Source: Candidatus Aminicenantes bacterium (lineage in GTDB: Bacteria > Acidobacteriota > Aminicenantia > Aminicenantales > Aminicenantaceae). Taken from it: DNA of 15,876 bases. Under the pieces are notes generated by a model. That model saw only the letters and a program-made list of their open reading frames with translations, had not been told where the DNA came from and ran no database searches. Below, one piece after another: positions 2,741 to 15,876 of the stretch (position 1 is the stretch's first letter; each line of letters begins with the position of its first letter). A program made the translations under genes and the position numbers. The stretch covers positions 942,645 through 958,520 of the forward strand of contig CP070750.1 in NCBI GenBank assembly GCA_020348385.1, given 5' to 3'.

Positions 2741-5700
2741 TTAGAACTTAAATTCTTTGTACTTCACCTTATGGAATAGCGAATAAAGAACAGGGACGAC
2801 GCCTAGAGTGAGCATGGTTGAGAAAAGCAATCCAAAAATGATCGCTATCGCCATCGGTTTCCACATAGGGCCTCCTCCTAACCATAGAGGAAGAAGACCT
2901 CCGACTGTCGTTGCTGTCGTGAGGAGGATGGGTCTGAGGCGACGTTGAGATGCTTCGACGACTGCCCGGGCCGGTTCCCACCCGTGTTCTTTGATCTCAT
3001 ATTTTATGCGATCAAGAAGCACGATGGCGTTATTGACGACAATGCCGGCAAGGGAAACCACCCCAAGAAGCGTCATGAATCCAAAATAAGAATTCGCTAT
3101 GAGCAGTCCAAAAACAACGCCGATGATCCCTAGAGGTATAGTGGTCAGTACGATTATCGGAAGCCGTATGGAGTTGAACTGGAGGACCAGCAGCAGAATA
3201 ATGATTAAGAAGCCTATCGGCATCTTCTCTCCGATAGATGCATTGGCCTCGCCAGAACTTTCTATTTCGCCGCCTAATTCATATTTGTATCCGACGTCCC
3301 ATGCTTGGCTTTCCACCTTAAGCCATTTATCCAGTTCCTGGCTGAGCGCGATTGGAAGAGTCCCAGGTAGTACCTCGGATTGAACGGTAACCGTTTTTAA
3401 CCGGGAACGCCGAAGGATTTTTGACGGTTGCCATTGAATCTCCAGGTCGGCCACCTGTTTTAAAGGGACGTTTCTCCCTGTCATCTGAGCGTACACATTG
3501 ACTGTTTCCAGCTTTCCGATGTCCTGACGTTCGGCCCCCTCTGAACGCATGGTTACAGGGATGGTTTTGTCTTCTTCTCTAAACTGGGTAACTTCGATTC
3601 CTGTCAGAGCTGTTTGCAATGAAATGGCGATATCTCGGTTTGTCACACCCGCACGGCGGGCACGGGCTTGATTGATCTTCACCAGAATTTTTTTAGTCCT
3701 CTGCCCCCAATCGTCTCGGATATTCTTGGTGCCTGGTATTGTCCTAAGCTTTGCTTTTACACTATCAGCCAGCTCGAACACTTTACCCAGTTCTTTACCG
3801 GAGACCCGGATTTCTACAGCGGCTGTCGGAGGGCCGTATAGGAGAAGATCAAGGCGGGTACGGAGTTCAGGGAATTTATTCATACAATATTCCTCTGTTT
3901 TTGCGATCAGAGAATCGATGATGGTGTTGGATGTTGTGTTAATAAGCATGGTCGCGTATTCAGGTTTCGCCGGTACTGGGCTGTAGGCGATATAAAAGCG
4001 CGGCGCACCCGCTCCGATATAAGTGGACCAGTTAACGATGCCCTCAGGACGATCGGGCCCGGCAGCCAGCTCGCGCTGCATGAACGCTTCGATGTCTTTG
4101 ACCACAGCTTCCATTTGATGGATGGGGGTTCCTTTGGGGAGTTCGAAATCCGCCGTGTAGATGGCTTTGTCATTCCTCGGAAAAAAGATGGCAGGGATGA
4201 ACATGAAACCCTGCATAGCAATGAAGAAAATGAAAACCACAGCGATTATTGATTTGACGGGATGGCGCAGCAACCGGAGTAAAAAATGTCGGTACCGCAC
4301 ATAAAAATTTGAGTCGTAATGCTCTTCTTTCTTTTTGACCTTTACAAAATACACACAAAACAGAGGGGTAATGGCCTCGGATAAGAACCAGGAACACAGT
4401 AGGGTAATGGTGACCACTTTGAACAGCGGTCCTATGTATTCACCCATGTTCGATTCTGCCAGATAAAAGGGAAGGAAGGCCGCAGCCGTGGTGAGAGACC
4501 CGATCAACAGGGGAACACGGAGTTCTGTCGCCGAACTGATGGCTGCTTCTTTTGCCGGTACTCCGGCTTTGATCTGGACCATTATCGATTCTGACATCAC
4601 GATCGCGTTATCTACCAGTAATCCCAGGGCTATGATAAGGGCAACTAGGGACATCTGATCGAGGCCAATGTTGAGGAAAGACATGATCAAGAGGCTCATG
4701 ATCATGGTCATCGGGACCAGGGATGCTACGACCAAACCTGTGCGAATCCCTAGGGTCAGAAGCATAACCAGAATGACAATGGCGATGGCTTGGAAGAGAT
4801 TGTTTGTGAAATTACTCACAGCGCGATCGACATGCTCCGGTTGGAATGCCACGGTATCGAATTCGATCCCTATGGGATACAGGCTTTGCAATCGACTCAT
4901 CAGCTCACTGACCTCTTCCCCGAGAACGATGATATTTCCTTTTTCTCGCAAATTGATGGCCAGAGCCAGTGCGGGTATTCCCGAGGAATGGACGATGGAC
5001 TGTGGAGGATCGATATATCCTCTGTAAACTTCGGCAAGATCCTCGACATAGATCAAATCTGTTCTTCCCGGAATGCTGATCAGAGTATGCTTCAAATCCT
5101 CGACCGATTCAAAACTGCCTGTCGGCTCCAGCACGATCTTTTCTTTTCCAGTGCTGACATCTCCCCCAGGGATGACAATGTTCTGGCTCTGCAATATGTT
5201 GATGAGCTGGGAGGCTGAAAGTCCCACTTCAGCCAGGCGGGCATCGTTGTATTCAACGAATATCCGTTCATCCTGTGCCCCGTGGATCTCGACTTTGGCA
5301 ACATCATCGATGAGCAGCATCTCATTTCGCACTTCATCAGCCACTTCTTTCAGCTGCGCATACGAGAATCCTTCCCCGGTGATCGTTATGATCGTGCCGA
5401 AAATATCGCCGAATTCGTCATTAACGAAAGGTCCGATCACACCCTCTGGCAGTTCTCCTTCGGCCTTTTCCACCTTCCGCCTCAGGCTATCCCAGATAGG
5501 GCGCATCTTTTTATAGCTTTGTTCGATGTTCACAAAAACGATTGAGACACCCGATCTGGATTCGCTGTTGATAAAATCAAGTTCCGGCATTTCCTGAATG
5601 GATTTCTCCAGCTTATCCGTGATCAGGGTTTCCACTCTTTCCGGGCTCGCTCCGGGAAAATAGGTCAACACCATGGCGGTACGGATAGTAAAGCCGGGAT

Positions 5701-5809
5701 CCTCGGCGCGGGGCATTCCTTGGAATGCCATGATACCGGCCAGGAGGGCAGCAAACAAAAGAACGAAAGTGACCCGGTTTTTTTCGATGGCGGTTTGTGT
5801 AATATTCAT
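2741..5809 (-). CDS. RND efflux transporter permease subunit (AcrB/HAE-type inner-membrane pump)
   Basis: About 1022 aa. Start refined to the internal ATG at 5809 (MNITQTAIEKNRVTFVLLFAALLAGIMAF is the typical RND N-terminus), preceded by GGAGAGGAAAG. The track's ATG at 5848 would overlap the adaptor gene by 23 nt and adds an atypical MVKRSSFRERKDP extension. The protein has two large periplasmic loops and twelve TM helices (e.g. NNAIVLLDRIKYE, GPMWKPMAIAIIFGLLFST). Confidence 0.9.
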   Translation of the reverse strand: MNITQTAIEKNRVTFVLLFAALLAGIMAFQGMPRAEDPGFTIRTAMVLTYFPGASPERVETLITDKLEKSIQEMPELDFINSESRSGVSIVFVNIEQSYKKMRPIWDSLRRKVEKAEGELPEGVIGPFVNDEFGDIFGTIITITGEGFSYAQLKEVADEVRNEMLLIDDVAKVEIHGAQDERIFVEYNDARLAEVGLSASQLINILQSQNIVIPGGDVSTGKEKIVLEPTGSFESVEDLKHTLISIPGRTDLIYVEDLAEVYRGYIDPPQSIVHSSGIPALALAINLREKGNIIVLGEEVSELMSRLQSLYPIGIEFDTVAFQPEHVDRAVSNFTNNLFQAIAIVILVMLLTLGIRTGLVVASLVPMTMIMSLLIMSFLNIGLDQMSLVALIIALGLLVDNAIVMSESIMVQIKAGVPAKEAAISSATELRVPLLIGSLTTAAAFLPFYLAESNMGEYIGPLFKVVTITLLCSWFLSEAITPLFCVYFVKVKKKEEHYDSNFYVRYRHFLLRLLRHPVKSIIAVVFIFFIAMQGFMFIPAIFFPRNDKAIYTADFELPKGTPIHQMEAVVKDIEAFMQRELAAGPDRPEGIVNWSTYIGAGAPRFYIAYSPVPAKPEYATMLINTTSNTIIDSLIAKTEEYCMNKFPELRTRLDLLLYGPPTAAVEIRVSGKELGKVFELADSVKAKLRTIPGTKNIRDDWGQRTKKILVKINQARARRAGVTNRDIAISLQTALTGIEVTQFREEDKTIPVTMRSEGAERQDIGKLETVNVYAQMTGRNVPLKQVADLEIQWQPSKILRRSRLKTVTVQSEVLPGTLPIALSQELDKWLKVESQAWDVGYKYELGGEIESSGEANASIGEKMPIGFLIIILLLVLQFNSIRLPIIVLTTIPLGIIGVVFGLLIANSYFGFMTLLGVVSLAGIVVNNAIVLLDRIKYEIKEHGWEPARAVVEASQRRLRPILLTTATTVGGLLPLWLGGGPMWKPMAIAIIFGLLFSTMLTLGVVPVLYSLFHKVKYKEFKF

Positions 5810-5825
5810 GGGATCTTTCCTCTCC

Positions 5826-6920
5826 CTAAAGCTTGACCTTTTGACCATCGGAAATATGGCTGATGCCGGCTGTTACGACCAGGTCCCCGTCTGCAAGGCC
5901 TTCAAATACCTCCAGTCCCTCTGCCGTCAACTCTCCGACATTGACCGGTTTACGTCTGATAATCCCGTAGCCTTCCTCCTCGGTGAGTCGTTCAACGATA
6001 AAAACAAACCGTCCTTCGCGATCTTCTCCTACTGCTTGAGAGGGGATGATGAACCTAACGCTCTCATCTTTCAGACTGAAGTGAAATTCAGCGGTCGCGA
6101 CCATCCCGGCACGGATATCCGGGTCCGGTTGACTCAGGAGTAAAGTGACTGGGAAAGTGGTAGCCATCCCAGTGGATTTAACGCCGATTTCGGAAACGGT
6201 TGCTTGGAATTCTTTATCGGGAACGGCATCAAATTTTACGGGAACATTTTTCTTTTCTTCTATAAGGGAGATTAAAATTTCTGGAATCGAGACTTTCACT
6301 TCGATGTGAGAACCCGATGTCAGCAGTATAATCGGCATGCCCACCTGAACGTTTTCGTTTACTTCAACATGAACCTCCGCAATCGCTCCGTTCAGCGGAG
6401 CTTTTATCTTTGTGTAATTCAACTGCATTTGAGCCAATTCCCGCATCTTTTCAAGTGTTTGAACGTTGGCGTTGGCCGCTTCGGATGCCATTCTGGCTGC
6501 ATCCAAATCGCTCAACGAAGTGCTCTTTTTCTCATAAAGCGTTCTTGTCCTTTCATAATTGACATCGGCATTTCGTGCCTGGGCTTTCCCCTGCAATAAT
6601 GCGGATTCGGCCTGCTGCAGTCTGAGTTCGTAATCGTTGGAGTCCAATTCGGCCAGGAGTTGGCCAGCTCTCACCCTGGACCCGACACGAACAGCAATAC
6701 CGCTTACCGTTCCCGGTACTTTGAAACTGAGATTCGATTCTGTGCCCGCCTGAGCCACGCCTGAAAATGTGCGAACATAACTCCCCTCTGCGGAAATAGC
6801 TTCTATGTATCGTACCGGCCGGATGATCTCCTGAATTTCTGCCTCCTCCTTGCAGGAAGAAAACAGCAAAACAGCTATTAAAATAGCAACACAAGGTTTA
6901 AGCAGATTGTTGACAGTCAT
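5826..6920 (-). CDS. RND efflux periplasmic adaptor (membrane-fusion protein, HlyD/AcrA family), probable lipoprotein
   Basis: 364 aa. Signal plus LLFSSC lipobox-like N-terminus, alpha-hairpin heptads (LELRLQQAESALLQGKAQARNADVNYERTRTLYEKK), and beta-barrel/MP domains. GGAGGA RBS. Sits 17 nt downstream of the outer-membrane factor and 16 nt upstream of the RND start. Confidence 0.9.
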   Translation of the reverse strand: MTVNNLLKPCVAILIAVLLFSSCKEEAEIQEIIRPVRYIEAISAEGSYVRTFSGVAQAGTESNLSFKVPGTVSGIAVRVGSRVRAGQLLAELDSNDYELRLQQAESALLQGKAQARNADVNYERTRTLYEKKSTSLSDLDAARMASEAANANVQTLEKMRELAQMQLNYTKIKAPLNGAIAEVHVEVNENVQVGMPIILLTSGSHIEVKVSIPEILISLIEEKKNVPVKFDAVPDKEFQATVSEIGVKSTGMATTFPVTLLLSQPDPDIRAGMVATAEFHFSLKDESVRFIIPSQAVGEDREGRFVFIVERLTEEEGYGIIRRKPVNVGELTAEGLEVFEGLADGDLVVTAGISHISDGQKVKL

Positions 6921-6937
6921 GATATCCTCCGATGTTT

Positions 6938-9340
6938 TTATTGCCTTTCTTCATATATTCCATACTTTTTATAAAAAGCTCTCATGCGCTCCAGAAGTGC
7001 TTGGCGTTCCTCGTTGTCCATAAAAAACTCGAATCTTCCTGTGGAACGTTCCATTTCCAGCAGATCGAGCAAGAAATCATACACGGCATTGGCTGCCGCT
7101 TGATCGGCATTGAATGCGGCGGTTTGAGCATCCAATAAACTGAGAATGGAAACAGCTCCTTGTGAATAAGCGTTTTGTACGATCTCTAAAGATTTATTGG
7201 CGGCGTCTGCAGCATCGCGTGCCTGTTCGATACCGACATAAGAGGATCCAGTCAAATAAATAGCTGAAAGAATACGCTGCTCGATCCTTTCGGTGATGGC
7301 TTGCTTCTGAAAATTCAGATAGTCCAGCTCTTTTTGTGCTTTTGTCCTCACAACGAGTTTCTCTCCCCCTTTGAACAAGGGGAAAAATAAGCTTAATCCA
7401 ATATTCCAGGAAGTGTTATCCATTTCGGGGAACGGGAATGATTGGGATAAACCAAAACCGGAGCTGGTGCCCGCTCCTCCCTTTGCAAAAATGTGCGATA
7501 CTTCGCCTTGAAGTGCCAAGGTCGGCAACCAAGAACTGTAGGATGCAGAGCGCAGGATCCTCTCTTGTGTTTCGATCGCAGCGTTCAACATCTCCAATTC
7601 AGGAGAGGCATTCAATCCTTCCTCCACCATAAACTTGCGGAAGACGTCCATTGACCGGATATTACCTGTTAATCTCAAAACTTCTTCGCTTGTGTAAAGA
7701 GCAAGATTACCCATTCCCACTTCAAGTGTGATGAATGGCTCATCTAAAGGCCTATGCAGGAGACGGTTGAGTTCGATTTCTGCCAGCATCCGCTGAGTAC
7801 TTACCTCCATGGAAGCTTTTTGGTTTGTCGCTAAAGCACTTTCCCATCGGTAGACCTCGGCAGGGCCTGCCATTCCTGTGGTTTCTCTTACGCGGGCTAT
7901 TTCCAGGTTAGTGCGTATTCTTTTTAAATTATCGCGTTGGATCTTCTCAAAAGTTTTAGCCCGGAGCACATTCAAGTACGCCGACGATGCAGCCAGAGTT
8001 ATGTCCAGCCGCAATTGCTCAAAATCCCATTCCCTGGATTTTTGAAGCGACTTTTGTATGGATAAATTGGCCCAAACCGGCTCAGAATAAATAACCTGGG
8101 TAGCCGAAACTGAGCCGGATAATGTGCGCTGTGCCTGGGAACCAAAGCTGGCTTCAGCCCTATCTTTGTCGATAACGATACCTGTCCCCAACAGGTCTAT
8201 TTGAGGAAGCAATTGTGATCGGGCTTGTCTGACATCCTGTGCGCCAGCAGACACAAATCTTTCTCTAGCGGCTAATTCTAGATTCATTTCGATGGCTTCT
8301 TGGACTGCTGAATTCAAACTGAGTTTTCGCTCCAAGTCTGTTAATTCTTCATTCAGCAATTCAGCCTTGATCAATACTCTCCAGGCAGGATAAACACCGA
8401 TTGCCCTTGCTGTCGCCATATTTATTTTTAACTGCTCTCCGATAGATATATCCACCGGTATGGAGCCTGGTTCTTCTCCCAACAGGATTCGTTGGATGTT
8501 CAGGGCCACTCTGCGAGCCACCTGTTGGGAAACGTCGGCAATCACAGAGGCCATGATCCCACGGTCCACATCATTGACATCGAACGACGCAAAACTTGGC
8601 AGTTTGCGTTTTATCAGTTCATCGATAAGTCGGGCAGAATCTGTCCTGGGTATTTGGAAGAGAGGCCCCAGAATCACAACTTCGATCTCAGGAGATAGTT
8701 GGGCTAGGGCAAAGTCGATGGATTTGCCCACGCCGATAACCTGCAGATCGATCCCAATTTTTTTCACCAAATTTGTGCCTCGGGTTCTGATCTCGGGGAT
8801 CGCCTTCAAATAGCTGGTATCGAATAGGTATGCTGCTTTCCTGAATTCAATGACCTCTAAAAAGGCCTGAACTTCTCTTATGGTCCTTTCCGGCATATTG
8901 ACATAATTGAGATTTTTCACACCGCTTGTTCCATCTTTATACGGAAATCCCATTAATCCCGCATCGAGAATCCAGGGAGCGATAACGGGTTTGGGCAGAC
9001 TTCCTCGGGTTGCTACATCATGGGAGGCTATGACTCCCATGGCAATGATTAAATCCACCTCTGGATCGGCAAGGAGTCTATTCATTCCGGCCTCAACTCC
9101 TTTGGCTGTCCAATCCGCCACAATGCGTTTATCTTCCGGGAACTGCACATCAAAATCTGCACGAGTGAGTTCAAGAATTTCATTCAACCAAAAAGACAGG
9201 TATTGCTCATTCAATTCATAGTACCCATCCAGCACCATTCCGATGCGCTTTACAGGAAGCTTTTCGGGCGTTTGAGGAAATCCCAGGCAGGTTATTATCA
9301 ATAAGGTAGTAAATAAACTAATATAACGTCGATAATTCAT
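6938..9340 (-). CDS. fusion protein: signal peptide + COG2984/PF04392-type periplasmic solute-binding domain + TolC-like outer membrane efflux protein (two OEP repeats)
   Basis: 800 aa in one uninterrupted frame. N-terminus MNYRRYISLFTTLLIITCLGF is a signal peptide. Residues ~30-330 match the ABC_sub_bind pattern (PKPVIAPWILDAGLMGFPY..GTSGVKNLNYV, LPSFASFDVNDVDRGIMASVIAD, GSIPVDISIGEQLKINMATARAIGVYPAWRVL). Residues ~335-800 carry two OEP repeats (LSLNSAVQEAIEMNLELAARE..; ..LPTLALQGEVS..; LSILSLLDAQTAAFNADQAAANAVYDF). There is no second signal peptide at the junction, so this is a true fusion rather than two genes. GGAGGA RBS 6 nt before the ATG. Confidence 0.8.
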   Translation of the reverse strand: MNYRRYISLFTTLLIITCLGFPQTPEKLPVKRIGMVLDGYYELNEQYLSFWLNEILELTRADFDVQFPEDKRIVADWTAKGVEAGMNRLLADPEVDLIIAMGVIASHDVATRGSLPKPVIAPWILDAGLMGFPYKDGTSGVKNLNYVNMPERTIREVQAFLEVIEFRKAAYLFDTSYLKAIPEIRTRGTNLVKKIGIDLQVIGVGKSIDFALAQLSPEIEVVILGPLFQIPRTDSARLIDELIKRKLPSFASFDVNDVDRGIMASVIADVSQQVARRVALNIQRILLGEEPGSIPVDISIGEQLKINMATARAIGVYPAWRVLIKAELLNEELTDLERKLSLNSAVQEAIEMNLELAARERFVSAGAQDVRQARSQLLPQIDLLGTGIVIDKDRAEASFGSQAQRTLSGSVSATQVIYSEPVWANLSIQKSLQKSREWDFEQLRLDITLAASSAYLNVLRAKTFEKIQRDNLKRIRTNLEIARVRETTGMAGPAEVYRWESALATNQKASMEVSTQRMLAEIELNRLLHRPLDEPFITLEVGMGNLALYTSEEVLRLTGNIRSMDVFRKFMVEEGLNASPELEMLNAAIETQERILRSASYSSWLPTLALQGEVSHIFAKGGAGTSSGFGLSQSFPFPEMDNTSWNIGLSLFFPLFKGGEKLVVRTKAQKELDYLNFQKQAITERIEQRILSAIYLTGSSYVGIEQARDAADAANKSLEIVQNAYSQGAVSILSLLDAQTAAFNADQAAANAVYDFLLDLLEMERSTGRFEFFMDNEERQALLERMRAFYKKYGIYEERQ

Positions 9341-10345: not shown

Positions 10346-11602
10346 GTGGATGTGAAAAAACCTGTTCGGCTATTCAATCGCAACTTCTTTCTGCTCTGGC
10401 AAGGACAATTTGTCAGCCAGATCGGCTCCCAGGCCTATGCCATAGCCATGATGTTATGGGTAAAGCATGAAACAGGTTCGGCCTCTTTGATGGGTCTGCT
10501 GATGATGGTGTCAATGATTCCGTTTGTGGTTCTCGGCCCCTTTGCTGGAACGTTTGCTGATCATTTTTCACGGCGCAAAATAATCATATTCAGTGACGTG
10601 CTCAGTGGAGTGCCGGTACTCACCCTGGCATTTTTGATGTTTTATCGACCCAGTGCTTCTGAACTCCTGATCGTCTGTCTTTTTCTGGTGAGTGTGACTC
10701 TGGGCATTATCCGGTCGTTTTTCAATCCGGCCATTTCTGCCTCGATTCCCGATATCGTTCCTCGCGAAAAGGTGTCTGCGGCCAATTCACTGAATCAGTC
10801 TTCGGTTCAAATTTCACAATTCATTGGCCAGGGGATAGGCGGATATCTATTTGTCATCCTTGGAGCTCCCTTGCTTTTTTTGATCGACGGCGTTACCTAT
10901 TTGTTTTCAGCTTTCAGTGAATCGTTTATCAGAATCCCACAGAAAATTCCTGAAAAAAAGGGTGGCTGGCGAGATAAGTTCGGAAAATTCAAGTCAGACA
11001 CAATGGAAGGATTTCGGTTTGTTTGGGGACATGCCGGTATCAGGGCCCTCTTTTTTGCCGCCGCATTCATCAATTTTTTCGCGATTCCGATTGTCGTTCT
11101 GCTGCCATTCTATGTGGAAGATCACCTCCATGCAACTTCTGATTGGTATGGCTATATTCTTGCAGCGTACGGATTCGGTGCATTAATTGGCTATGGAATT
11201 GCTGGTGGCGTGAAAATATCCAGTCCTATCCGGTCCAAAGCCGTTATTTCTGCACTCGTTCTCATGTCTTTTTGCTTACCCATATTGAGCGTTATAGATG
11301 TACCAGTTCTTGCTCTAGTATTGATGATTCTAATCGGAGTTCTGAGTGGATTTTTCAATATAAACCTGTACACGCTGCTCCAAATCGCCGTCCCCAGTGA
11401 AATGAGAGGGAGGGTATTCGGCTTGCTCATCACTCTCACTGGCGGCTTAACACCCATTTCCATGGGCCTCAGCGGGATTATTGCGGATCTGGTAAACCAG
11501 AATATTCCCCTCATCTATGCAGTCTGCGGGATAACAACACTTTTGCTCACCATCATTACCTCATTCAGCAAGAATTTTAGGGCTTTCTTGCGTTCTGGAT
11601 AA
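10346..11602 (+). CDS. MFS transporter, MFS_3 / EntS-like (enterobactin-exporter-type) family
   Basis: 418 aa with twelve predicted TM helices. The N-terminus LFNRNFFLLWQGQFVSQIGSQAYAIAMMLWV resembles the conserved start of MFS_3 / EntS-type exporters, and DHFSRRKIIIFSD is an MFS motif-A-like loop. Start is GTG at 10346 with no better in-frame ATG. Confidence 0.85.
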   Translation: MDVKKPVRLFNRNFFLLWQGQFVSQIGSQAYAIAMMLWVKHETGSASLMGLLMMVSMIPFVVLGPFAGTFADHFSRRKIIIFSDVLSGVPVLTLAFLMFYRPSASELLIVCLFLVSVTLGIIRSFFNPAISASIPDIVPREKVSAANSLNQSSVQISQFIGQGIGGYLFVILGAPLLFLIDGVTYLFSAFSESFIRIPQKIPEKKGGWRDKFGKFKSDTMEGFRFVWGHAGIRALFFAAAFINFFAIPIVVLLPFYVEDHLHATSDWYGYILAAYGFGALIGYGIAGGVKISSPIRSKAVISALVLMSFCLPILSVIDVPVLALVLMILIGVLSGFFNINLYTLLQIAVPSEMRGRVFGLLITLTGGLTPISMGLSGIIADLVNQNIPLIYAVCGITTLLLTIITSFSKNFRAFLRSG

Positions 11603-11638
11603 GGTTTAAGACGGAGCCAAAAAAAATCATAAAAAAAC

Positions 11639-11685
11639 TTGACAAATGGACAAAAAAGCATTAGTATACACTTGGGTAGTTACTA
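11639..11685 (+). promoter_or_regulatory. putative trmB promoter with a GGGTAGTtACTA motif at or just after the TSS
   Basis: TTGACA (11639-11644), a 17-nt spacer, then TAGTAT (11662-11667). The motif GGGTAGT-T-ACTA (11674-11685) ends 2 nt before the ATG at 11688. The same motif recurs as a full palindrome at 12488-12502. Confidence 0.35.
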
Positions 11686-11687
11686 GA

Positions 11688-12470
11688 ATGGAAAAAAAGG
11701 AAATCGTTCAAGCAATCGAGAATCTTGGGCTCTCGACCTATGAAGCGAAAGCCTATTTTGCCCTCCTTTCAGAATCTCCTCTGACAGGTTATAAACTCAG
11801 CAAGAATTCCGGCGTTCCCCGTTCTCGTATATACGAAACGATCGAAAAACTCACGGCGAAAGGATTGGTTCTCTCTCAAGAGGGAGATACAACTTTGTTG
11901 ATCCCTGTCAGTCTCGAATCATTTTTGGAAAAAAAAGAAAAGGAAAGCAAACGGAACATCAATTTCCTCAAGGAAGTTCTCCCGCAGCTCAAAAAACCAG
12001 CGGAGAGTCAGGGCATCTGGACCATATCAGGACGGGATCAAATATTCGAATCCGTCAATCACTTTATTTCTCAGGCAAAAAGCCATGTTTATTTAGTTAG
12101 TTTCGACAGTGATATCATTTTCTTTGAAATTGCTCTGTCCGAGGCTGAAAAAAGGAAGGTATCCATTTTTGGCGCTTATTGCGGAGAAAAGGATTTTAAG
12201 CTAAAAAATCTGTATCCTCATCAGGGGCAGCCCTGTTCTTCCTGCAGGGATATTTCACTCACTATCGATTCAGAAGAAGCTCTTGTGGGTTGTACATTTC
12301 CTCCTGATGGAGCGAGGATCGCCCTGACCAAAAATCCCGGCATCATCCATGTGGCCGAAGAATACATCAAGCATGAGATTTTCTTGAGCCAGTTATTTAA
12401 AACGTATGATAAGGTTCCATCGGATGAATGGAATGCCATTTATCAGAAAATAATGGGTGATCTCCCATAA
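11688..12470 (+). CDS. TrmB-family transcriptional regulator (N-terminal wHTH plus C-terminal sensor-like domain)
   Basis: MEKKEIVQAIENLGLSTYEAKAYFALLSESPLTGYKLSKNSGVPRSRIYETIEKLTAKGLV is a canonical TrmB HTH. Start placed at the ATG at 11688 because the upstream ATG at 11646 sits inside the predicted promoter spacer and adds a non-conserved 14 aa. The alternative start at 11646 cannot be excluded. Confidence 0.75.
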   Translation: MEKKEIVQAIENLGLSTYEAKAYFALLSESPLTGYKLSKNSGVPRSRIYETIEKLTAKGLVLSQEGDTTLLIPVSLESFLEKKEKESKRNINFLKEVLPQLKKPAESQGIWTISGRDQIFESVNHFISQAKSHVYLVSFDSDIIFFEIALSEAEKRKVSIFGAYCGEKDFKLKNLYPHQGQPCSSCRDISLTIDSEEALVGCTFPPDGARIALTKNPGIIHVAEEYIKHEIFLSQLFKTYDKVPSDEWNAIYQKIMGDLP

Positions 12471-12487
12471 ATTTTTTTTTGAAAAAG

Positions 12488-12502
12488 GGGTAGTAACTAC
12501 CC
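12488..12502. promoter_or_regulatory. perfect 7-1-7 palindrome GGGTAGT-A-ACTACCC (candidate TrmB operator; alternatively a minus-strand hairpin plus T-run)
   Basis: rc(GGGTAGT)=ACTACCC. It sits between a TTGAAA (12479-12484) and the small-ORF RBS. On the minus strand it reads hairpin + CTTTTTC, but no minus-strand gene ends here. Confidence 0.4.
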
Positions 12503-12549
12503 TAATGAACACTAATGAGAGGAAAGACATTTTATCTTAGGAGGCGAAA

Positions 12550-12774
12550 ATGAGATTTCGAGAAAAATTACTCATTTTATTCGTTGCGGTTATCCTATCG
12601 TTTTTGGGGTTTTACCTGATTTCCTCATCTTTTGCTGAACTGCACACTCTGGCTAGGGAGAGGGACACCGATCAGAGCGAGAGTTATCTTGCCGAATGCG
12701 ATGTGAACAAGTCCTTGCTGAATTCTTACCTCAGCAAATCTAGTTTTTCTTGTGCTACCGGTGCAAGTGAATGA
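12550..12774 (+). CDS. small hypothetical secreted or membrane protein (74 aa)
   Basis: Strong AGGAGG RBS (12538-12543) 6 nt before the ATG. The N-terminus KLLILFVAVILSFLGFYLISSSFA is hydrophobic, followed by a hydrophilic tail with two Cys. Its stop overlaps the start region of the next gene (ATGA at 12771-12774). No recognisable family. Confidence 0.4.
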   Translation: MRFREKLLILFVAVILSFLGFYLISSSFAELHTLARERDTDQSESYLAECDVNKSLLNSYLSKSSFSCATGASE

Positions 12775-12794
12775 ATCCATCAAAGGAGAAAAAC

Positions 12795-13079
12795 ATGGAT
12801 GTAAAATGGAAAGAACTGGTTTTTTTAGGGGCCTCTGTTTCGGCCCATTGTTTTCCCTGCTTCGATTATCATCTCGAACAAGCAAGAAAGTTGGGAATTT
12901 GTGAGGCAGATATTCAAGAATCCATTCAAGCAGGATTTATGGTCATGAACGGGGCGGGCGACAAAATGAAGGAAAAAATTAAACAGACATTGCCACAAAT
13001 ATCACTCAAAGGGAATGAAAGCTGCTCGAGCAATCCGACGAAAAAGAAAACCCTTCATGTTCCTGTTGTCCGGTTTTAG
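12795..13079 (+). CDS. carboxymuconolactone decarboxylase / AhpD-like family protein (Cys-x2-Cys-x3-His motif)
   Basis: AAGGAG (12782-12787) 7 nt before the ATG at 12795. MDVKWKELVFLGASVSAHCFPCFDYHLEQARKLGICEADIQESIQAG matches the AhpD/CMD core (conserved C..C...H followed by a helix). The track's ATG at 12771 lacks an RBS. Confidence 0.7.
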   Translation: MDVKWKELVFLGASVSAHCFPCFDYHLEQARKLGICEADIQESIQAGFMVMNGAGDKMKEKIKQTLPQISLKGNESCSSNPTKKKTLHVPVVRF

Positions 13080-13133
13080 CGCACAGTTCTACACACATAA
13101 AATCAGATGAGCATTTCCAGGAGCATCAAATCC

Positions 13134-13535
13134 ATGAAAGGCGCGCAATTCCATCCGAAAAAAACACTCGTTCCCCAGCCCATTGTGAAGGGCGCACGCA
13201 TGTGGAGCGTGGCCTTGGAAAAAACGATGTTCACCTATTTCGAAATAGATCCGGAAAGCCGCTTTGACCTGCATTCCCATGTGAATGAACAGATAACCAT
13301 GGTGCTGGGAGGGGAATTATTTTTCAAGTTTAAAGATAGAATCGTATGCGTGAAAAAAGGAGAGGTGATAGCCATCCCTTCAAACACCCCTCACGAGGCC
13401 TTCACACAAAAAAGTTCTGTGATTGCGGTTGATGCTTGGTCTCCTGTTATGGAAAAATATAGACAAGGGAAAAAAGATAATAATGTATTGCAGAAAGAGC
13501 GCATACTCGCCGGTTGTATCGGGATGAAGCCTTGA
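13134..13535 (+). CDS. cupin domain protein
   Basis: Cupin motif 1 HSHVNEQITMVLGG and motif 2 PSNTPHEA. AGGAG lies about 10 nt before the ATG at 13134. The alternative upstream start at 13107 has no RBS. Confidence 0.65.
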   Translation: MKGAQFHPKKTLVPQPIVKGARMWSVALEKTMFTYFEIDPESRFDLHSHVNEQITMVLGGELFFKFKDRIVCVKKGEVIAIPSNTPHEAFTQKSSVIAVDAWSPVMEKYRQGKKDNNVLQKERILAGCIGMKP

Positions 13536-13575
13536 AAAATAAAAAGATAATTATTGAACATTCAGGGAAATGGAT

Positions 13576-14466
13576 ATGGATAAACTTAAATTTTATATTG
13601 TTGATGTTTTTGCAGAAACAAAATTGACGGGCAACCAGCTTGCTGTCTTTATTAATGCAAAATCTCTTGGTACGGACAAAATGCAACGCATAGCCAAAGA
13701 AATGAACTTTTCGGAAACCACATTTATTACTTCAAATGAAGATCGTGGAAACGGATACGATGTTCGTATCTTTACTCCAGAAAATGAACTCCCTTTTGCC
13801 GGACACCCTACATTGGGAACGGCATATGTTATCCAGAATGAAATCAAAAAAAGAATGGTAGACATAATTAATTTAAATCTGAAAGTGGGGCAAATACCCG
13901 TCTCGTTTCTATCTAAAAACAATCAGATAGATTTCGTTTGGATGAAGCTCAAAACGCCGATTTTTGAACATGAATATGGGCCAGAACCGTGGACGGAAAT
14001 GCTGGGATTGGAGAAGGACGATTTTGAAAAGGATTATCCTATCTGCGAAGTGTCTGCTGGTGTTTTTTGTTTTATTGTTCCTCTCAAGACCCTCAACGCA
14101 GTAAAAAGAGCACAAATAAACCTGAATAAATTTTATGAGTTCATCAAAAATTCAAATGCTAAGGCGACTCTTGTTTTTGCTAAAGAGACCTATAAAGAAG
14201 AAAATGATCTTAATGTCAGATTCTTCGCACATTATTATGGGGTGTCCGAAGATCCGGCCACCGGAAGTGCCAATGGATGTCTAGCAGCCTATCTTGTCAA
14301 GTACAATTACTTCGGCGAGAACCAAATTGATGTCCGAGTAGAACAGGGTTATGAGATAGGGAGACCGTCGCTGCTTCTTCTTAAAGCAGAACACAAAGGC
14401 GAGGATATCGACATCAATGTAGGAGGAAAGGTATTTATGGTTGCAAAGGGAGAATTTTTTATATGA
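13576..14466 (+). CDS. PhzF-family (phenazine biosynthesis-like / DAP-epimerase-fold) isomerase
   Basis: KFYIVDVFAETKLTGNQLAVF..SETTFI..DVRIFTPENELPFAGHPTLGTAYV is a canonical PhzF/YddE N-terminal half with the catalytic-region Glu. A C-terminal duplicate half (..SEDPATGSANGCLAAYL) is present. Start placed at the second ATG (13576) for better spacing from GGGAAA. Confidence 0.85.
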   Translation: MDKLKFYIVDVFAETKLTGNQLAVFINAKSLGTDKMQRIAKEMNFSETTFITSNEDRGNGYDVRIFTPENELPFAGHPTLGTAYVIQNEIKKRMVDIINLNLKVGQIPVSFLSKNNQIDFVWMKLKTPIFEHEYGPEPWTEMLGLEKDDFEKDYPICEVSAGVFCFIVPLKTLNAVKRAQINLNKFYEFIKNSNAKATLVFAKETYKEENDLNVRFFAHYYGVSEDPATGSANGCLAAYLVKYNYFGENQIDVRVEQGYEIGRPSLLLLKAEHKGEDIDINVGGKVFMVAKGEFFI

Positions 14467-14502
14467 ATTATCCTATTTGCCGCCATTTCAGGAGGCATTT
14501 AA

Positions 14503-15129
14503 ATGAACAGCAAAGATTATTTTGAAAAGGTCGCCGATCAATGGGATCAAATGAGAAGAAGCTTTTTTTCTGACAAAGTGCGGAAAGTGGCTGTTGCAAA
14601 AGCGGATATTCAGGCCGGGAAATTGGCGGCGGATATCGGAGCAGGGACTGGTTTTGTAACTGAGGAGTTGGTTCAAAATGGCTTAAAGGTTATTGCTGTC
14701 GATCAATCGGGAGGCATGCTCGAAGAGATGAAAAAAAAGTTTGGCCGGATCGATACTGTCGAATACAGGATAGGAGATTTCAATAACTTACCTCTCCAGA
14801 ATGAAACAGTGGATTATGTTTTTGCCAACATGTATTTGCATCATGTCGACTTACCCCAGGTGGCGATAGAAGAGATGGCAAGAGTTTTAAAGCCAGGAGG
14901 CAAAGTTGTCATCACTGATATGGACGAACATAAATTCGAGTTCCTGAAGAAAGAACAGCACGACCGCTGGCTGGGATTTAAAAGGGAGGATGTCGAGCGC
15001 TGGTTTAATGAAGCAGGGCTGAAAAATGTAAGAGTAGAATGTATGGAGGAGGAGTGCTGCGCAGATTCTGTGGAATGCGGGGAGAAAGCGAGCGTCAGCT
15101 TATTCGTAGCTTATGGTGAGAAATCATGA
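14503..15129 (+). CDS. class I SAM-dependent methyltransferase (Methyltransf_11-like) with a Cys-rich C-terminal tail
   Basis: AGGAGG (14489-14494) 8 nt before the ATG. Motif I DIGAGTGFVTEEL, an acidic beta2 end (VIAVDQS), motif II DYVFANMYLHH and motif III LKPGGKVVITD. The C-terminus reads CMEEECCADSVECGE (C-x4-CC-x5-C). Confidence 0.85.
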   Translation: MNSKDYFEKVADQWDQMRRSFFSDKVRKVAVAKADIQAGKLAADIGAGTGFVTEELVQNGLKVIAVDQSGGMLEEMKKKFGRIDTVEYRIGDFNNLPLQNETVDYVFANMYLHHVDLPQVAIEEMARVLKPGGKVVITDMDEHKFEFLKKEQHDRWLGFKREDVERWFNEAGLKNVRVECMEEECCADSVECGEKASVSLFVAYGEKS

Positions 15130-15876
15130 ACTCGATTTCCGTTTTTTCCTTCTCAGGGTTTCAATAGTAAAATCTTCAAAGGTGATGGCGATGGCGATTT
15201 TGGTCATTAAAGTGAAAATAAGAAAGCCGATGGCAAAGATGGCCACCGAAATTTTGATTTCTGTCATAGACGGCCTGTAGATGTATATCTGCCCCAATGT
15301 ATCCGGAGTGAATCCGGGGATGAGCAGGGCGATTCCTTTTTCGATATAAACACCGAACCAGATTAAAATGGCTCCTAGGTTTAAGGTAATGACGTTTTTC
15401 CTCGTTTTGGGGATTAAAAAGAGCAAAAAGGCAATGATGCTTATGATCAATGAGACCCAGCCGTAGAACACGATATCACGGTTTTCCCCGACCCCGATAA
15501 AAAGGTATTTCAGATGGACCAGATGTTCTGTATCCGAGTATATTTCTTTGAACACTTCGGCGCCGAAAAAAAACAGGTTGATAAACATGGCATAAGCCAT
15601 AAGCTCGGCGATCTTCCAGATCGCTTCCTGTTTGATCTCGAACGTTGTGGTTTTTTTCAAAATCTGGAAGAGGATGATCAACACTGCCGGACCGGAGCAG
15701 AATGCCGATGCCAAAAATTTAGGAGCTAACAGCGCGCTGTTCCAATATGGTCGGCCGGCAAGCCCATTGTAAAGGAATGCGGTTACAGTATGGATACTGA
15801 TGGCAAGCGGGATAGAAAACAAAATAAACGGATTCAATAGCTTTTTGTTGTATTCCTTCTTGTAGAAGAGAGTATT
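15124..15876 (-). CDS. NrfD/PsrC-like polytopic membrane protein, C-terminal ~250 aa (gene continues beyond the window end)
   Basis: Minus-strand frame is open to the window edge; the track's M is an internal TTG. There are six TM helices, and the penultimate region YIYRPSMTEIKISVAIFAIGFLIF resembles the Y-x-P-S/T-x-x-E C-terminal signature of NrfD/PsrC quinol-interacting subunits. Its stop overlaps the methyltransferase stop (TCATGA at 15124-15129). Confidence 0.45.
   Translation of the reverse strand, partial: NTLFYKKEYNKKLLNPFILFSIPLAISIHTVTAFLYNGLAGRPYWNSALLAPKFLASAFCSGPAVLIILFQILKKTTTFEIKQEAIWKIAELMAYAMFINLFFFGAEVFKEIYSDTEHLVHLKYLFIGVGENRDIVFYGWVSLIISIIAFLLFLIPKTRKNVITLNLGAILIWFGVYIEKGIALLIPGFTPDTLGQIYIYRPSMTEIKISVAIFAIGFLIFTLMTKIAIAITFEDFTIETLRRKKRKSSS

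Follow-up and report, generated by a model that had tools for sequence, protein, structure and literature searches.

A conserved inverted-repeat motif at two promoters flanking a TrmB-family gene as the candidate operator of an autoregulated repressor in a Candidatus Aminicenantes bacterium

The window analysed here is a stretch of 15,876 nucleotides from a Candidatus Aminicenantes bacterium. It carries a gene for a TrmB-family regulator that lies between two copies of an inverted-repeat motif, and the second copy precedes a series of genes (12550-15129) that probably form one co-transcribed operon. The features of the locus are given below, where the promoters at both sites are consensus predictions.

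11639-11644, + strand: -35 hexamer TTGACA of the regulator's own promoter (consensus scan: 17-nt spacer, then TAGTAT, 10 of 12 matches)
11662-11671: sub-site 1a, TAGTATACAC, whose first six bases are the -10 hexamer TAGTAT (11662-11667)
11674-11685: site 1, GGGTAGTTACTA, with the core GTAGTTACTA (11676-11685) and the palindrome TAGTTACTA (11677-11685)
11688-12470, + strand: TrmB-family regulator gene, 260 amino acids (called from Pfam PF01978, homologue length and structure matches)
12472-12480, + strand: run of nine T directly 3' of the regulator stop codon, conservation at least 0.9
12479-12484, + strand: -35-like TTGAAA of the downstream promoter, read from the sequence, with moderate conservation (0.4-0.6)
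12488-12502: site 2, the perfect palindrome GGGTAGTAACTACCC, with the core TAGTAACTAC (12491-12500)
12501-12506, + strand: -10-like CCTAAT, 16 nt after TTGAAA, its TAAT part conserved at 0.9 or more
12506-12514: sub-site 2b, TGAACACTA, 15 bp from the site 2 palindrome, with a conserved right arm ACTA
12550-12774, + strand: small membrane protein of 74 amino acids, the first gene behind site 2, with the ribosome-binding site AGGAGG at 12539-12544
12771-13079, + strand: CMD/AhpD-like protein (Pfam PF02627) with the CxxC motif HCFPCFDYH
13107-13535, + strand: Cupin_2 protein, which recurs in loci L001, L013, L014 and L068
13570-14466, + strand: PhzF-family isomerase (Pfam PF02567, 207 bits; NCBIfam TIGR00654, 222 bits against a cut-off of 76)
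14503-15129, + strand: class I SAM-dependent methyltransferase of 208 amino acids, the last gene of the presumed operon

Assignment of the regulator to the TrmB family, as in the original prediction, is sound. Residues 12-76 match PF01978 with 69 bits (cut-off 25.6), and translation from the ATG at 11688 yields 260 amino acids, which is the length of nearly all homologues. The protein consists of a winged helix-turn-helix, a coiled-coil helix and a PLD-like effector domain, without a sugar-binding beta-sandwich subdomain. In an AlphaFold2 model (pLDDT 88), a helix at residues 76-100 is followed by an alpha/beta domain, and Foldseek matched this model to TrmBL2, TrmBL1 and the TrmB sugar-binding domain 2f5t (E = 2e-7), and then to PLD-fold proteins. 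A sequence search of the PDB with the family profile returned 3qph (2e-17) and TrmBL2 (4e-13). PF11495 is not significant for the window protein and is recorded for several homologues. The regulator does not reach the NCBIfam cut-offs for the sugar-sensing TrmB and TrmBL1 equivalogs (73 and 56 bits versus 650 and 600), and this match covers only residues 1-160 of a 260-residue protein, versus about 340 residues. It likewise scores 38.5 bits for the TrmBL2 equivalog, whose cut-off is 530. Across the family, the sequence SGVPR(S/A/P)RIYE in the helix-turn-helix region is invariant, as are H229 and E230, while C165, H178 and C183 are nearly so. The clade comprises about 15 clusters at 50% identity, drawn from Aminicenantes/Acidobacteriota, Thermoanaerobaculia, a 'Deltaproteobacteria' MAG and KSB1.

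The earlier gene calls for the downstream cluster, namely CMD/AhpD, cupin, PhzF and methyltransferase, are correct. The small membrane protein at its head has an N-terminal transmembrane segment that is conserved in about 20 loci and a variable C-terminal part, and it has no match in Pfam or NCBIfam. The CMD/AhpD-like gene, which is the most constant neighbour of the regulator, likely starts at ATG 12795, preceded by AAGGAG. In NCBIfam it comes closest to AhpD domains that are fused to ArsM-like methyltransferases, but none of these matches reaches its cut-off. The methyltransferase carries a C-terminal cysteine cluster (C180, C185, C186 and C192), and its homologues adjoin the regulator in Aminicenantes-like and distant GC-rich loci alike. 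An identification of this enzyme as ArsM was considered and is unsupported, as it falls below all cut-offs (58 bits, versus 263 for arsenite methyltransferase).

Among related loci the operator module is constant and the gene behind it varies, being a small membrane ORF, CMD, ArsN2, CBM9/DUF5916 or a PEP-mutase-like gene. The neighbours that recur are the CxxC AhpD-like protein, the methyltransferase, the cupin and PhzF, or ArsN2 with an ArsP-type permease. ArsN2 exceeds the NCBIfam cut-off of 125 bits in two lineages (135 and 127 bits), with an ArsP_1-family permease (PF03773) adjacent to it. Neither ArsN2 nor an ArsP-type permease is present in this window, and no match to arsR, arsC, acr3 or arsB was found among the neighbouring genes scanned or annotated.

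Both motif sites are where they had been placed. Site 1 lies between the predicted promoter, with its -10 hexamer at 11662-11667, and the start codon ATG 11688, and site 2 lies between TTGAAA and the AGGAGG of the small ORF. The pattern GGGTAGTNACTA has three exact matches in the window, at 11674-11685 (+), 12488-12499 (+) and 12491-12502 (-), of which the last two are readings of one perfect 15-bp palindrome. The exact pattern was absent from all 200 dinucleotide-preserving shuffles, and chance is thereby excluded for the exact motif. When up to two mismatches are allowed, the window holds five matches against 1.3 expected. The claimed 12-nt identity between the sites holds if site 1 is compared with the minus-strand reading of site 2 (12 of 12 positions), but not on the + strand, where the central base is T in one and A in the other.

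Comparison with relatives changes what the motif is taken to be. At site 1 they read AGGTAGTTACTAA and at site 2 GATAGTAACTACTC, and the GGG/CCC extension is peculiar to this window. The GGG/CCC arms were therefore rejected as part of the motif. The conserved motif is not GGGTAGTnACTACCC but the 10-mer GTAGYYACTA, a TAG-N3-CTA dyad, together with a partner sub-site. The 10-mer is asymmetric in part, with G1 and A7 lacking symmetric partners. At site 2, TAGT and CTAC are present in 15 of 15 distinct lineages, whereas the two central bases vary (AA, GG, GA or AG). One locus, L087, reads TGGTTACCA with both arms changed symmetrically, as expected of a site that is read by a dimer.

The core of site 2 is the reverse complement of the core of site 1, and the similarity extends beyond the cores. 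The 24-mer at 11662-11685 is identical at 20 of 24 positions to the reverse complement of 12491-12514, and no other position of the window, with both strands considered, matches at more than 15 of 24. The locus presents two 24-bp elements in opposite orientation, each made of a 10-mer core and a partner sub-site 15 bp away. The distance from sub-site 1a to the main site 1 palindrome is 15 bp from start to start. In distant loci, a second full palindrome is found at the position equivalent to sub-site 1a, and pairs of palindromes spaced by 15 bp recur in L063, L065, L068 and L069. The L068 pair occupies the spacer/-10 region and the start site of a promoter with TTGACA, a 17-nt spacer and TATCCT. 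Counterparts of sub-site 2b in GC-rich loci read TGAACAC (L082) and TGAATACTA (L077). The sub-sites are spaced by 15 bp in most lineages and by about 9-12 bp in L077, L082 and L089. As a separate observation, a minus-strand promoter in L063-L066 (TTGACA, 15 nt, TAGTAT) was read by eye and fails the 16-18 nt spacer rule of the scan.

The element at site 1 spans the regulator's own promoter from the -10 hexamer to about +15, and site 1 itself occupies about +1 to +15, ending 2 nt before the start codon in the usual place of a ribosome-binding site. Site 2 occupies the -35/-10 spacer of the downstream promoter and abuts the -10. The CTTGACA of the first promoter is retained in nearly all loci of 46-94% protein identity, and relatives read TCTAAT, TATAAT or TTTAAT at the position of CCTAAT.

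Conservation was assessed in 34 distinct related loci with protein identities of 50-94%. Four-fold degenerate sites of invariant regulator codons served as the neutral reference and have a pairwise identity of 0.47 (maximum 0.69) in these loci. Over the same loci, TAGTATACAC, GTAGTTACTA, TAGT..CTAC and AATGAAYACTA reach at least 0.9, and this difference from 0.47 points to purifying selection on both sites. Site 1 falls on the ribosome-binding region, so translation may account for some of its conservation, and some lineages read AAGGAGTTACTA there, which is a better Shine-Dalgarno sequence. We found no signal of co-evolution between the two sites of a genome: similarity was 18.04/24 within loci and 18.06/24 between loci, and 3018 of 5000 permutations reached the observed value. 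The sites of one genome are therefore no more alike than sites across genomes, and the GGG shared in this window carries no weight.

Such conservation could in principle stem from ordinary signals for the promoter, the start site and ribosome binding, or from the site of a different transcription factor, in which case the TrmB-like neighbour would not be the binder. Site 1 does overlap the -10 together with the ribosome-binding region and the presumed start, and both promoters carry an ACAC(T) box behind the -10, oriented alike. However, generic signals would not give one 10-mer in opposite orientations at two promoters, and would not track one regulator gene into genomes of 55-68% GC, where the positions are divergent or upstream. 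No second regulator gene is consistently present in these loci, which argues against another factor. We judge this explanation to be very unlikely.

The perfect palindrome at site 2 might instead act as an RNA hairpin, either as an intrinsic terminator of the regulator gene or as a leader structure. On the + strand of this window it can fold at -9.4 kcal/mol, and on the minus strand a consensus scan classes it as terminator-like. However, the regulator and the small ORF that flank it are both on the + strand, so a minus-strand terminator has no identified user, and on the transcribed + strand no T-run follows the stem. The GC arms exist only in this window, whereas the TAGT/ACTA or TAG/CTA arms of relatives form no stable stem. 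In addition, site 2 has modest shuffle z-scores, -2.4 on the + strand and -1.2 on the minus strand, no fold forms at site 1 (-0.7 kcal/mol), and an Rfam search of 11400-12900 gave nothing near the gathering score. Contradicted by the conservation pattern and lacking a U-tract, a hairpin function for site 2 was rejected and seems highly improbable. The nine-T run that precedes site 2 may serve the downstream promoter as an UP-like element, form the U-tract of a weak regulator-gene terminator, or do both. The hairpin upstream of this run folds weakly (-9.4 kcal/mol, z = -1.5).

The distribution of the motif follows that of the regulator gene. Counting GTAGTTACTA across about 557 kb of related DNA gave 36 occurrences at site 1, 35 at site 2 and five at other positions, all five a short way upstream of distant homologues. 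The window holds no copies apart from those at the two sites. Over this DNA the motif is confined to the neighbourhood of the regulator and is not a dispersed repeat.

A frequency matrix built from 18 lineages was applied to 17 distant loci (110 kb), 13 of which have a GC content of 55-70%. It gave 17 matches against 2.4 expected, all no more than 1.5 kb from the regulator gene and at the heads of operons, in surrounding DNA that cannot be aligned. Four further lineages carry the motif, and the additional carriers include the 'Deltaproteobacteria' MAG, Thermoanaerobaculia and KSB1. The motif is absent from 7 of the 17 distant loci, and in 4 of these 7 the sequence that precedes the regulator gene is shorter than about 700 nt. 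A relaxed TAG-N3-CTA pattern had no match in five of six motif-less loci checked; the other, L086, has two matches that are far from the gene. An altered helix-turn-helix region in the motif-less loci was considered and rejected, because the invariant SGVPR(S/A/P)RIYE sequence is present in all.

Two inverted repeats with 20 of 24 identical positions around a single gene, with flanking genes that differ among loci, are also what the terminal repeats of a mobile cassette would look like, and the elements could alternatively be dispersed REP or MITE copies. The copy distribution in 557 kb argues against dispersed repeats. The locus has no transposase and no direct duplication beside the repeats, the sites in distant loci are located in divergent or upstream promoters rather than around the gene, and the neighbours are drawn from a small recurring set of gene families. 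Both forms of the mobile-element explanation were rejected on these grounds, and we give them hardly any credence.

The comparative evidence points to a model in which the two motifs are operators of an autoregulated, TrmB/TrmBL2-like repressor encoded between them, and we assign this model a probability of about 80%. The original prediction of an autoregulated repressor with its target operon is supported by conservation across 34 loci, by overlap with core promoter elements and by co-occurrence with the regulator. The same inverted-repeat site is present in both promoters, where it overlaps the predicted -10 or spacer and the start or ribosome-binding region. The operator would be a composite of about 24 bp that consists of GTAGYYACTA and the partner sub-site 15 bp away, and the bound form would probably be a dimer of dimers. 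At its own promoter the regulator is expected to bind from the -10 to about +15, covering the ribosome-binding region, and at the downstream promoter across the -35/-10 spacer and the start region. Since the operators lie on both core promoters, bound regulator would exclude or block RNA polymerase at both. It would thereby repress its own gene and the operon for the small membrane protein, CMD/AhpD, cupin, PhzF and methyltransferase, until an effector sensed through the PLD-like C-terminal domain releases it from DNA. We infer binding at these sites, repression, stoichiometry and the effector.

The same regulator might bind the same sites but activate the downstream promoter, or act there in both ways, and so offset its weak -35, which is conserved at only 0.4-0.6. 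MerR-type proteins act from within the promoter spacer, but this mode of activation requires an over-long spacer of 19-20 nt and belongs to a different protein family. The site 2 palindrome abuts the -10 inside a spacer of normal length (16-17 nt), where bound protein would clash with RNA polymerase. Although TrmBL1, Tgr and Halobacterium TrmB both repress and activate (PMC4158304; PMC2710871), the activating sites in archaea are located upstream of the core promoter (PMC4158304). Activation by this regulator therefore appears unlikely, if somewhat less so than the other alternatives to the repressor model weighed above.

The nature of the effector is a matter of speculation, and a thiol-reactive metal or metalloid is one candidate. 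In a more ambitious proposal, the clade would consist of thiol-based sensors of soft metals, metalloids or organoarsenicals that use C165, H178 and C183 of the PLD-like domain. These proteins would take the place of ArsR over ArsN2 with ArsP and over the CxxC AhpD protein with the cysteine-rich methyltransferase, and would bind the 24-bp composite operator as a dimer of dimers. We hold this full proposal only tentatively and consider it doubtful. Literature searches on TrmB with arsenic or arsenite and on DVU1556 found nothing relevant, and no literature was found that joins AhpD and ArsM with selenoprotein or organometallic themes.

Under the repressor model, the locus most likely represents an ordinary type of genetic switch that has not been described before for this subfamily of TrmB proteins. 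Research on TrmB-family regulators has, to our knowledge, dealt almost exclusively with archaea, in which most of these proteins respond to sugars, and our search of the literature for bacterial examples found only the mycobacterial MmtA1. The analysis offers a testable set for a bacterial subfamily from largely uncultivated phyla, consisting of GTAGYYACTA with its partner sub-site, two promoters and a recurrent regulon. The candidate regulon includes the CxxC AhpD-like protein, methyltransferase, cupin and PhzF, or else ArsN2, an ArsP-type permease and a PEP-mutase-like enzyme, and it provides an entry point to gene clusters without assigned function. The regulator and its site might also be put to synthetic use as a compact repressor/operator pair. 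If the effector is a metalloid or another thiol-reactive compound, the range of signals known for the TrmB fold would become wider; if not, the protein would be a routine local repressor.

The closest known systems are TrmB and TrmBL1/Tgr of Thermococcus and Pyrococcus, which belong to the same family and combine a PF01978 winged helix-turn-helix, a coiled coil and a PLD-like effector subdomain. In archaea, TrmB proteins exert repression through palindromes located at the promoter or the start site, and TrmBL1 is reported to regulate its own gene (PMC4158304). As at this locus, TrmB and TrmBL1 use short T/A-rich inverted repeats on the core promoter or start site, and the regulator gene adjoins its target operon (PMC4158304; PMC2710871). 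The archaeal malE and mdxE promoters carry a full palindrome and a half-site, which is also the arrangement here (PMC4158304; PMC2710871). In contrast, the regulator described here resides in a bacterial host with sigma-70-type -35/-10 promoters, has 260 amino acids without the C-terminal sugar-binding beta-sandwich, and has targets that are not genes for sugar transport or glycolysis.

The sites themselves had been likened to the archaeal TrmB operator, TACT-N3-AGTA (PMC4158304), and this resemblance is loose. The window sites have TAGT in place of TACT/AGTA-type half-sites, and their TAGT/ACTA arms are 1 nt apart, whereas the arms of the archaeal sites are separated by 3, 5 or 7-8 nt. TACT or AGTA occurs in the window sites only as an overlap with the central base. 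Other archaeal sites are the TGM, TATCAC-N5-GTGATA, and the Halobacterium site, TACT-N7-8-GAGTA (PMC4158304; PMC2710871).

The best structural match is TrmBL2 (PDB 5box and 5bpd), a chromatin protein and global repressor of Thermococcales that shares the length of about 260 amino acids and the layout of the regulator, with a sequence identity of about 20%. Some bacteria are said to possess TrmBL2-like proteins (PMC3031468). Whereas the binding of TrmBL2 to coding and intergenic DNA follows no specific motif (PMC4158304), the regulator of this locus appears to be tied to a precise 10-mer.

Functional parallels can also be drawn with ArsR/SmtB proteins, which are small dimeric winged-helix repressors that head detoxification operons, have an inverted-repeat operator on their own promoter and carry conserved cysteines, but belong to a different protein family. 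The putatively regulated genes of some lineages include ArsN2 and an ArsP_1-family permease, and ars operons are known to contain both ArsN2 and ArsP (PMC6465285; PMC6205960). A precedent for sensing through cysteine rather than of sugars by a PF01978 protein is OxsR of Haloferax volcanii (PMC9426492). OxsR is a single-domain protein with C24 in the interface of the DNA-binding domain and a CG-rich motif, CGGnCGnGCG (PMC9426492), whereas the conserved C165 and C183 of the regulator described here lie in the C-terminal domain and its motif is AT-rich.

Two copies of a short palindromic motif lie in regulatory positions on either side of a gene for a TrmB-family regulator, one ahead of the regulator gene itself and the other ahead of a presumed operon.

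Promoters, motif sites and their partners around the regulator gene
11639-11644, +, TTGACA, -35 of the regulator promoter (consensus scan)
11662-11667, +, TAGTAT, -10 of the regulator promoter after a 17-nt spacer (consensus scan, 10/12 matches)
11662-11670, partner of site 1, TAGTATACA, beginning with the -10 hexamer
11674-11685, site 1, GGGTAGTTACTA (read from the window sequence)
11688-12470, +, regulator gene, 260 aa
12479-12484, +, TTGAAA, -35-like hexamer of the downstream promoter
12488-12502, site 2, perfect palindrome GGGTAGTAACTACCC (read from the window sequence)
12506-12514, partner of site 2, TGAACACTA
12539-12544, +, AGGAGG, RBS of the ORF starting at 12550

Site 1 is located between the predicted regulator promoter, which is a strong sigma-70-type promoter, and the ATG at 11688, and site 2 between the TTGAAA and AGGAGG elements. 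Because both sequences and their placements are exactly as the original prediction gave them, that observation is confirmed. The GGGTAGTNACTA pattern has three exact matches in the window (the palindrome is counted on both strands) and none in 200 dinucleotide-preserving shuffles; with up to two mismatches there are five matches versus 1.3 expected. The only exact copies of the bare core TAGTNACTA in the window are sites 1 and 2. We take ATG 11688 as the true regulator start because the resulting 260 amino acids match the length of nearly all homologues. An alternative in-frame ATG at 11646 yields a 274-aa ORF (adding 11646-11687) that overlaps the promoter and operator, and three 274-aa database entries (P0006, P0013 and P0015) apparently use it and are probably mis-called.

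For comparison, 86 loci encoding relatives of the regulator were fetched, and an exact look-up added six; Candidatus Aminicenantes MAGs, with 85-87% protein identity, are the closest genomes. Every locus from 94% to about 46% protein identity carries the same layout upstream of the regulator gene (CTTGACA, 17 nt, TAGTATACAC, TTAGG, TAGTTACTA, 2-3 nt, ATG) and 3' of its stop codon (T8, GAAAAAATGA, TAGTAACTAC, TCTAAT, GAACACTAATGA). Among 34 distinct loci, TAGTATACAC, GTAGTTACTA, TAGT..CTAC and AATGAAYACTA are each at least 0.9 identical, whereas four-fold degenerate sites in invariant regulator codons have a pairwise identity of 0.47 (maximum 0.69), and therefore the non-coding blocks are under strong purifying selection. 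What relatives retain of the predicted repeat is a common core, GTAGYYACTA, present at site 2 as the reverse complement TAGTRRCTAC with variable central bases (AA, GG, GA or AG); the GGG/CCC arms that make site 2 a 15-bp palindrome are not conserved. A test for within-genome co-variation of sites 1 and 2 was negative, so the GGG shared by the two sites in the window does not count as evidence.

Each core is paired with a partner 15 bp away to form a composite element of about 24 bp. At 20 of 24 positions, the 24-mer at 11662-11685 is identical to the reverse complement of 12491-12514 (the next-best match anywhere in the window is 15/24), and inverted matches of 15-20/24 were found in 26 loci. 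Distant lineages carry another complete palindrome as partner, for example TAGTAACTA-tcctag-TAGTTACTA (locus L068), TAGTAACTA-tcatag-TAGATACTA (L063) and TAGTATCTA-ctatag-TAGTTACTT (L069). The pair in L068 occupies the spacer/-10 region and the start site of a promoter with TTGACA, a 17-nt spacer and TATCCT. The sub-sites are closer together in L077, L082 and L089, at about 9-12 bp.

Two other conserved features accompany these promoters. Nine consecutive T nucleotides (12472-12480), with conservation of 90% or more across loci, directly follow the regulator stop codon; they could serve the next promoter as a UP-like element or form the end of a weak terminator with a hairpin in the last codons (12453-12468). 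In both promoters the -10 is followed by an ACAC(T) box of like orientation (11668-11672 and 12509-12513 in the window), also at least 90% conserved, which may indicate the region where transcription starts or belong to the partner sub-sites.

The proposal that site 2 is an RNA hairpin or terminator is contradicted by the lack of a U-tract on the transcribed strand, by a stem present only in the window and not in relatives, and by the lack of an Rfam match. An origin of the 24-bp elements in a mobile element or dispersed repeat is likewise contradicted, both by copy number and by placements that differ among distant loci. A count of GTAGTTACTA over 557 kb (the 86 loci and the window) gave 36 copies at site 1, 35 at site 2 and five at other positions, each of these five just upstream of a distant homologue on a GC-rich contig; the sequence is found only beside regulator homologues and is no dispersed repeat. 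Generic promoter or ribosome-binding signals may contribute to the conservation of site 1, whose sequence is AAGGAGTTACTA in some lineages, but they cannot explain an identical 10-mer at two promoters in opposite orientations, or its presence beside distant homologues in GC-rich DNA.

In a distant set of 17 loci (110 kb in total; 34-45% identity; 55-70% GC in 13), a position weight matrix gave 17 matches versus 2.4 expected, always at intergenic operon heads no more than 1.5 kb from the regulator gene. In L063-L066 a divergent methyltransferase-CMD operon has the palindrome pair in its promoter (CMD denotes the AhpD-like protein), the order is operator, methyltransferase, cupin and regulator gene in L068 and L069, and sites both precede and closely follow the regulator gene in L077 and L082. 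The matrix scan found no motif in seven of the 17 loci, most with very short flanks, and the SGVPR(S/A/P)RIYE stretch of the HTH region is unchanged there. Sites also occur on independent contigs from a 'Deltaproteobacteria' MAG (L087), Thermoanaerobaculia (L089) and KSB1 (L091), and in a further 50%-identity homologue locus from an unclassified assembly (L092). The site 1 palindrome of L087, TGGTTACCA (near 4988-4996, immediately before the regulator gene at 5001), has a symmetric arm change (left A to G, right T to C), as expected for a site that would be read by a dimer. In L091 an operator-like AGTAGTAGCTACTAAC (5849-5862) lies 57 nt past the regulator stop; the next called gene is convergent, and a target gene is not evident there.

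The regulator belongs to the TrmB family by domain (PF01978, 69 bits versus a cut-off of 25.6) and fold. A family-profile search of solved structures returned Pyrococcus TrmBL1 (3qph, 2e-17) and TrmBL2 (4e-13), and the AlphaFold2 model (pLDDT 88) most resembles TrmBL2, then TrmBL1, the TrmB sugar-binding domain (2f5t) and PLD-fold proteins. NCBIfam scores far under every equivalog cut-off rule it out as an equivalog of TrmB, TrmBL1 or TrmBL2. With 260 aa, a winged helix, a long helix and one PLD-like domain, it shares the TrmBL2 layout; the beta-sandwich with which TrmB completes its sugar pocket is absent. Residues C165, H178 and C183 are nearly invariant in the effector domain; a thiol-based TrmB-family regulator is known from Haloferax (PMC9426492). 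The subfamily is small, with about 15 clusters (50% identity) at <1e-60 and 173 at <1e-30 among 1.84 billion representatives.

Five genes follow the regulator on the + strand with gaps of at most 36 nt.

Genes downstream of the regulator
12550-12774, +, first gene, 74-aa membrane protein
second gene, +, CMD/AhpD-like protein with motif HCFPCFDYH
third gene, +, cupin
fourth gene, +, PhzF-family isomerase
14503-15129, +, fifth gene, class I methyltransferase of 208 aa with a C-terminal cysteine cluster
15124-15837, -, NrfD-like gene (polysulphide-reductase membrane subunit), convergent, closing the cluster

The NrfD-like gene overlaps the end of the methyltransferase gene by 6 nt, and NrfD is again convergent after this gene in L014 (14-nt gap). 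The small membrane ORF has a conserved N-terminal transmembrane segment (M+F+EKLLILFV....S..GFNLIASS in the window, L001, L007, L009, L013, L015 and others) and a C-terminal part variable in length (33-95 aa) and sequence; a family match was not found for it, and in L015 it is the sole gene behind the operator.

The promoter-operator module after the regulator is kept among lineages while the first downstream gene varies (small membrane ORF, CMD, ArsN2, CBM9/DUF5916 protein or PEP-mutase-like enzyme). CMD/AhpD is almost always a neighbour, and the 208-213-aa methyltransferase, cupin and PhzF recur. Operator-like sites precede or face CBM9_1/DUF5916 genes in L048 (2995-3004), L092 (7447-7456), L049 (just downstream of 6777) and L053 (1107-1116), and thus these genes look like extra regulon members in some lineages. 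The window also carries an RND efflux operon on the - strand (6938-9340, 5826-6920 and 2741-5848: outer-membrane factor, membrane-fusion protein and AcrB-type pump), with no operator motif near it. Its 800-aa outer-membrane factor is an unusual fusion, with a weak ABC_sub_bind (PF04392) match before the OEP repeats.

The methyltransferase cysteine cluster (C180, C185, C186 and C192; VECMEEECCADSVECGEK) and the CxxC of CMD suggest thiol or soft-metal chemistry; the methyltransferase homologue in L064 has CC pairs at both protein ends. Neighbours in other lineages include CMD, an ArsP_1-family permease with a CSC motif, and ArsN2 (NCBIfam equivalog scores of 135 and 127 bits versus a cut-off of 125); ars operons are known to include ArsN2 and ArsP (PMC6465285; PMC6205960). 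The closest resemblance of the CMD domain is to AhpD domains that occur in fusions with ArsM-like methyltransferases. However, no match to arsR, arsC, acr3 or arsB was found among scanned or annotated neighbouring genes, and the methyltransferase scores under every ArsM cut-off, so that an ArsM identity is not supported. For these reasons, a soft metal, metalloid or thiol-reactive compound as the effector is only a hypothesis, and a doubtful one.

The site 1 element spans the -10 to about +15, covering the ribosome-binding region, and the site 2 element occupies a spacer of normal length (16-17 nt), directly adjoins the -10 and extends to the start region. Since occupancy of either element should block polymerase, we infer from sequence, conservation, position and co-occurrence with the regulator an autoregulated local repressor, which would bind its two sub-sites probably as a dimer of dimers, prevent RNA polymerase binding or open-complex formation at both promoters, and be released by an effector; the genes at 12550-15129 would presumably be co-transcribed. 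The weak downstream -35 would suit activation rather than repression of that promoter, which we regard as quite improbable. The original reading of an autoregulated repressor and its target operon stands as the predicted function.

A literature search found no paper linking TrmB-family proteins to the GTAGYYACTA motif or these target genes. Mycobacterium smegmatis MmtA2 has a footprinted site, TGTAGTC-N4-GACTACA, with the same GTAGT/ACTAC arms as the motif but another spacing; the paper leaves the family of MmtA2 unstated, and the neighbouring MmtA1 has a PF01978 domain (bioRxiv 10.1101/2025.04.03.647061). The suggested resemblance to archaeal TrmB sites is only loosely true: both are palindromic and T/A-rich, but the half-site here is TAGT rather than TACT and the arms are separated by 1 nt rather than 3 to 8. 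The proposed mode of repression is that of archaeal TrmB and TrmBL1, which act through palindromic sites located on promoters or start sites and can have a complete palindrome at one of their promoters but a half-site at a different one (PMC4158304). Overall, the motif pair is genuine and has good support, and its type is that of a classical local repressor-operator module.
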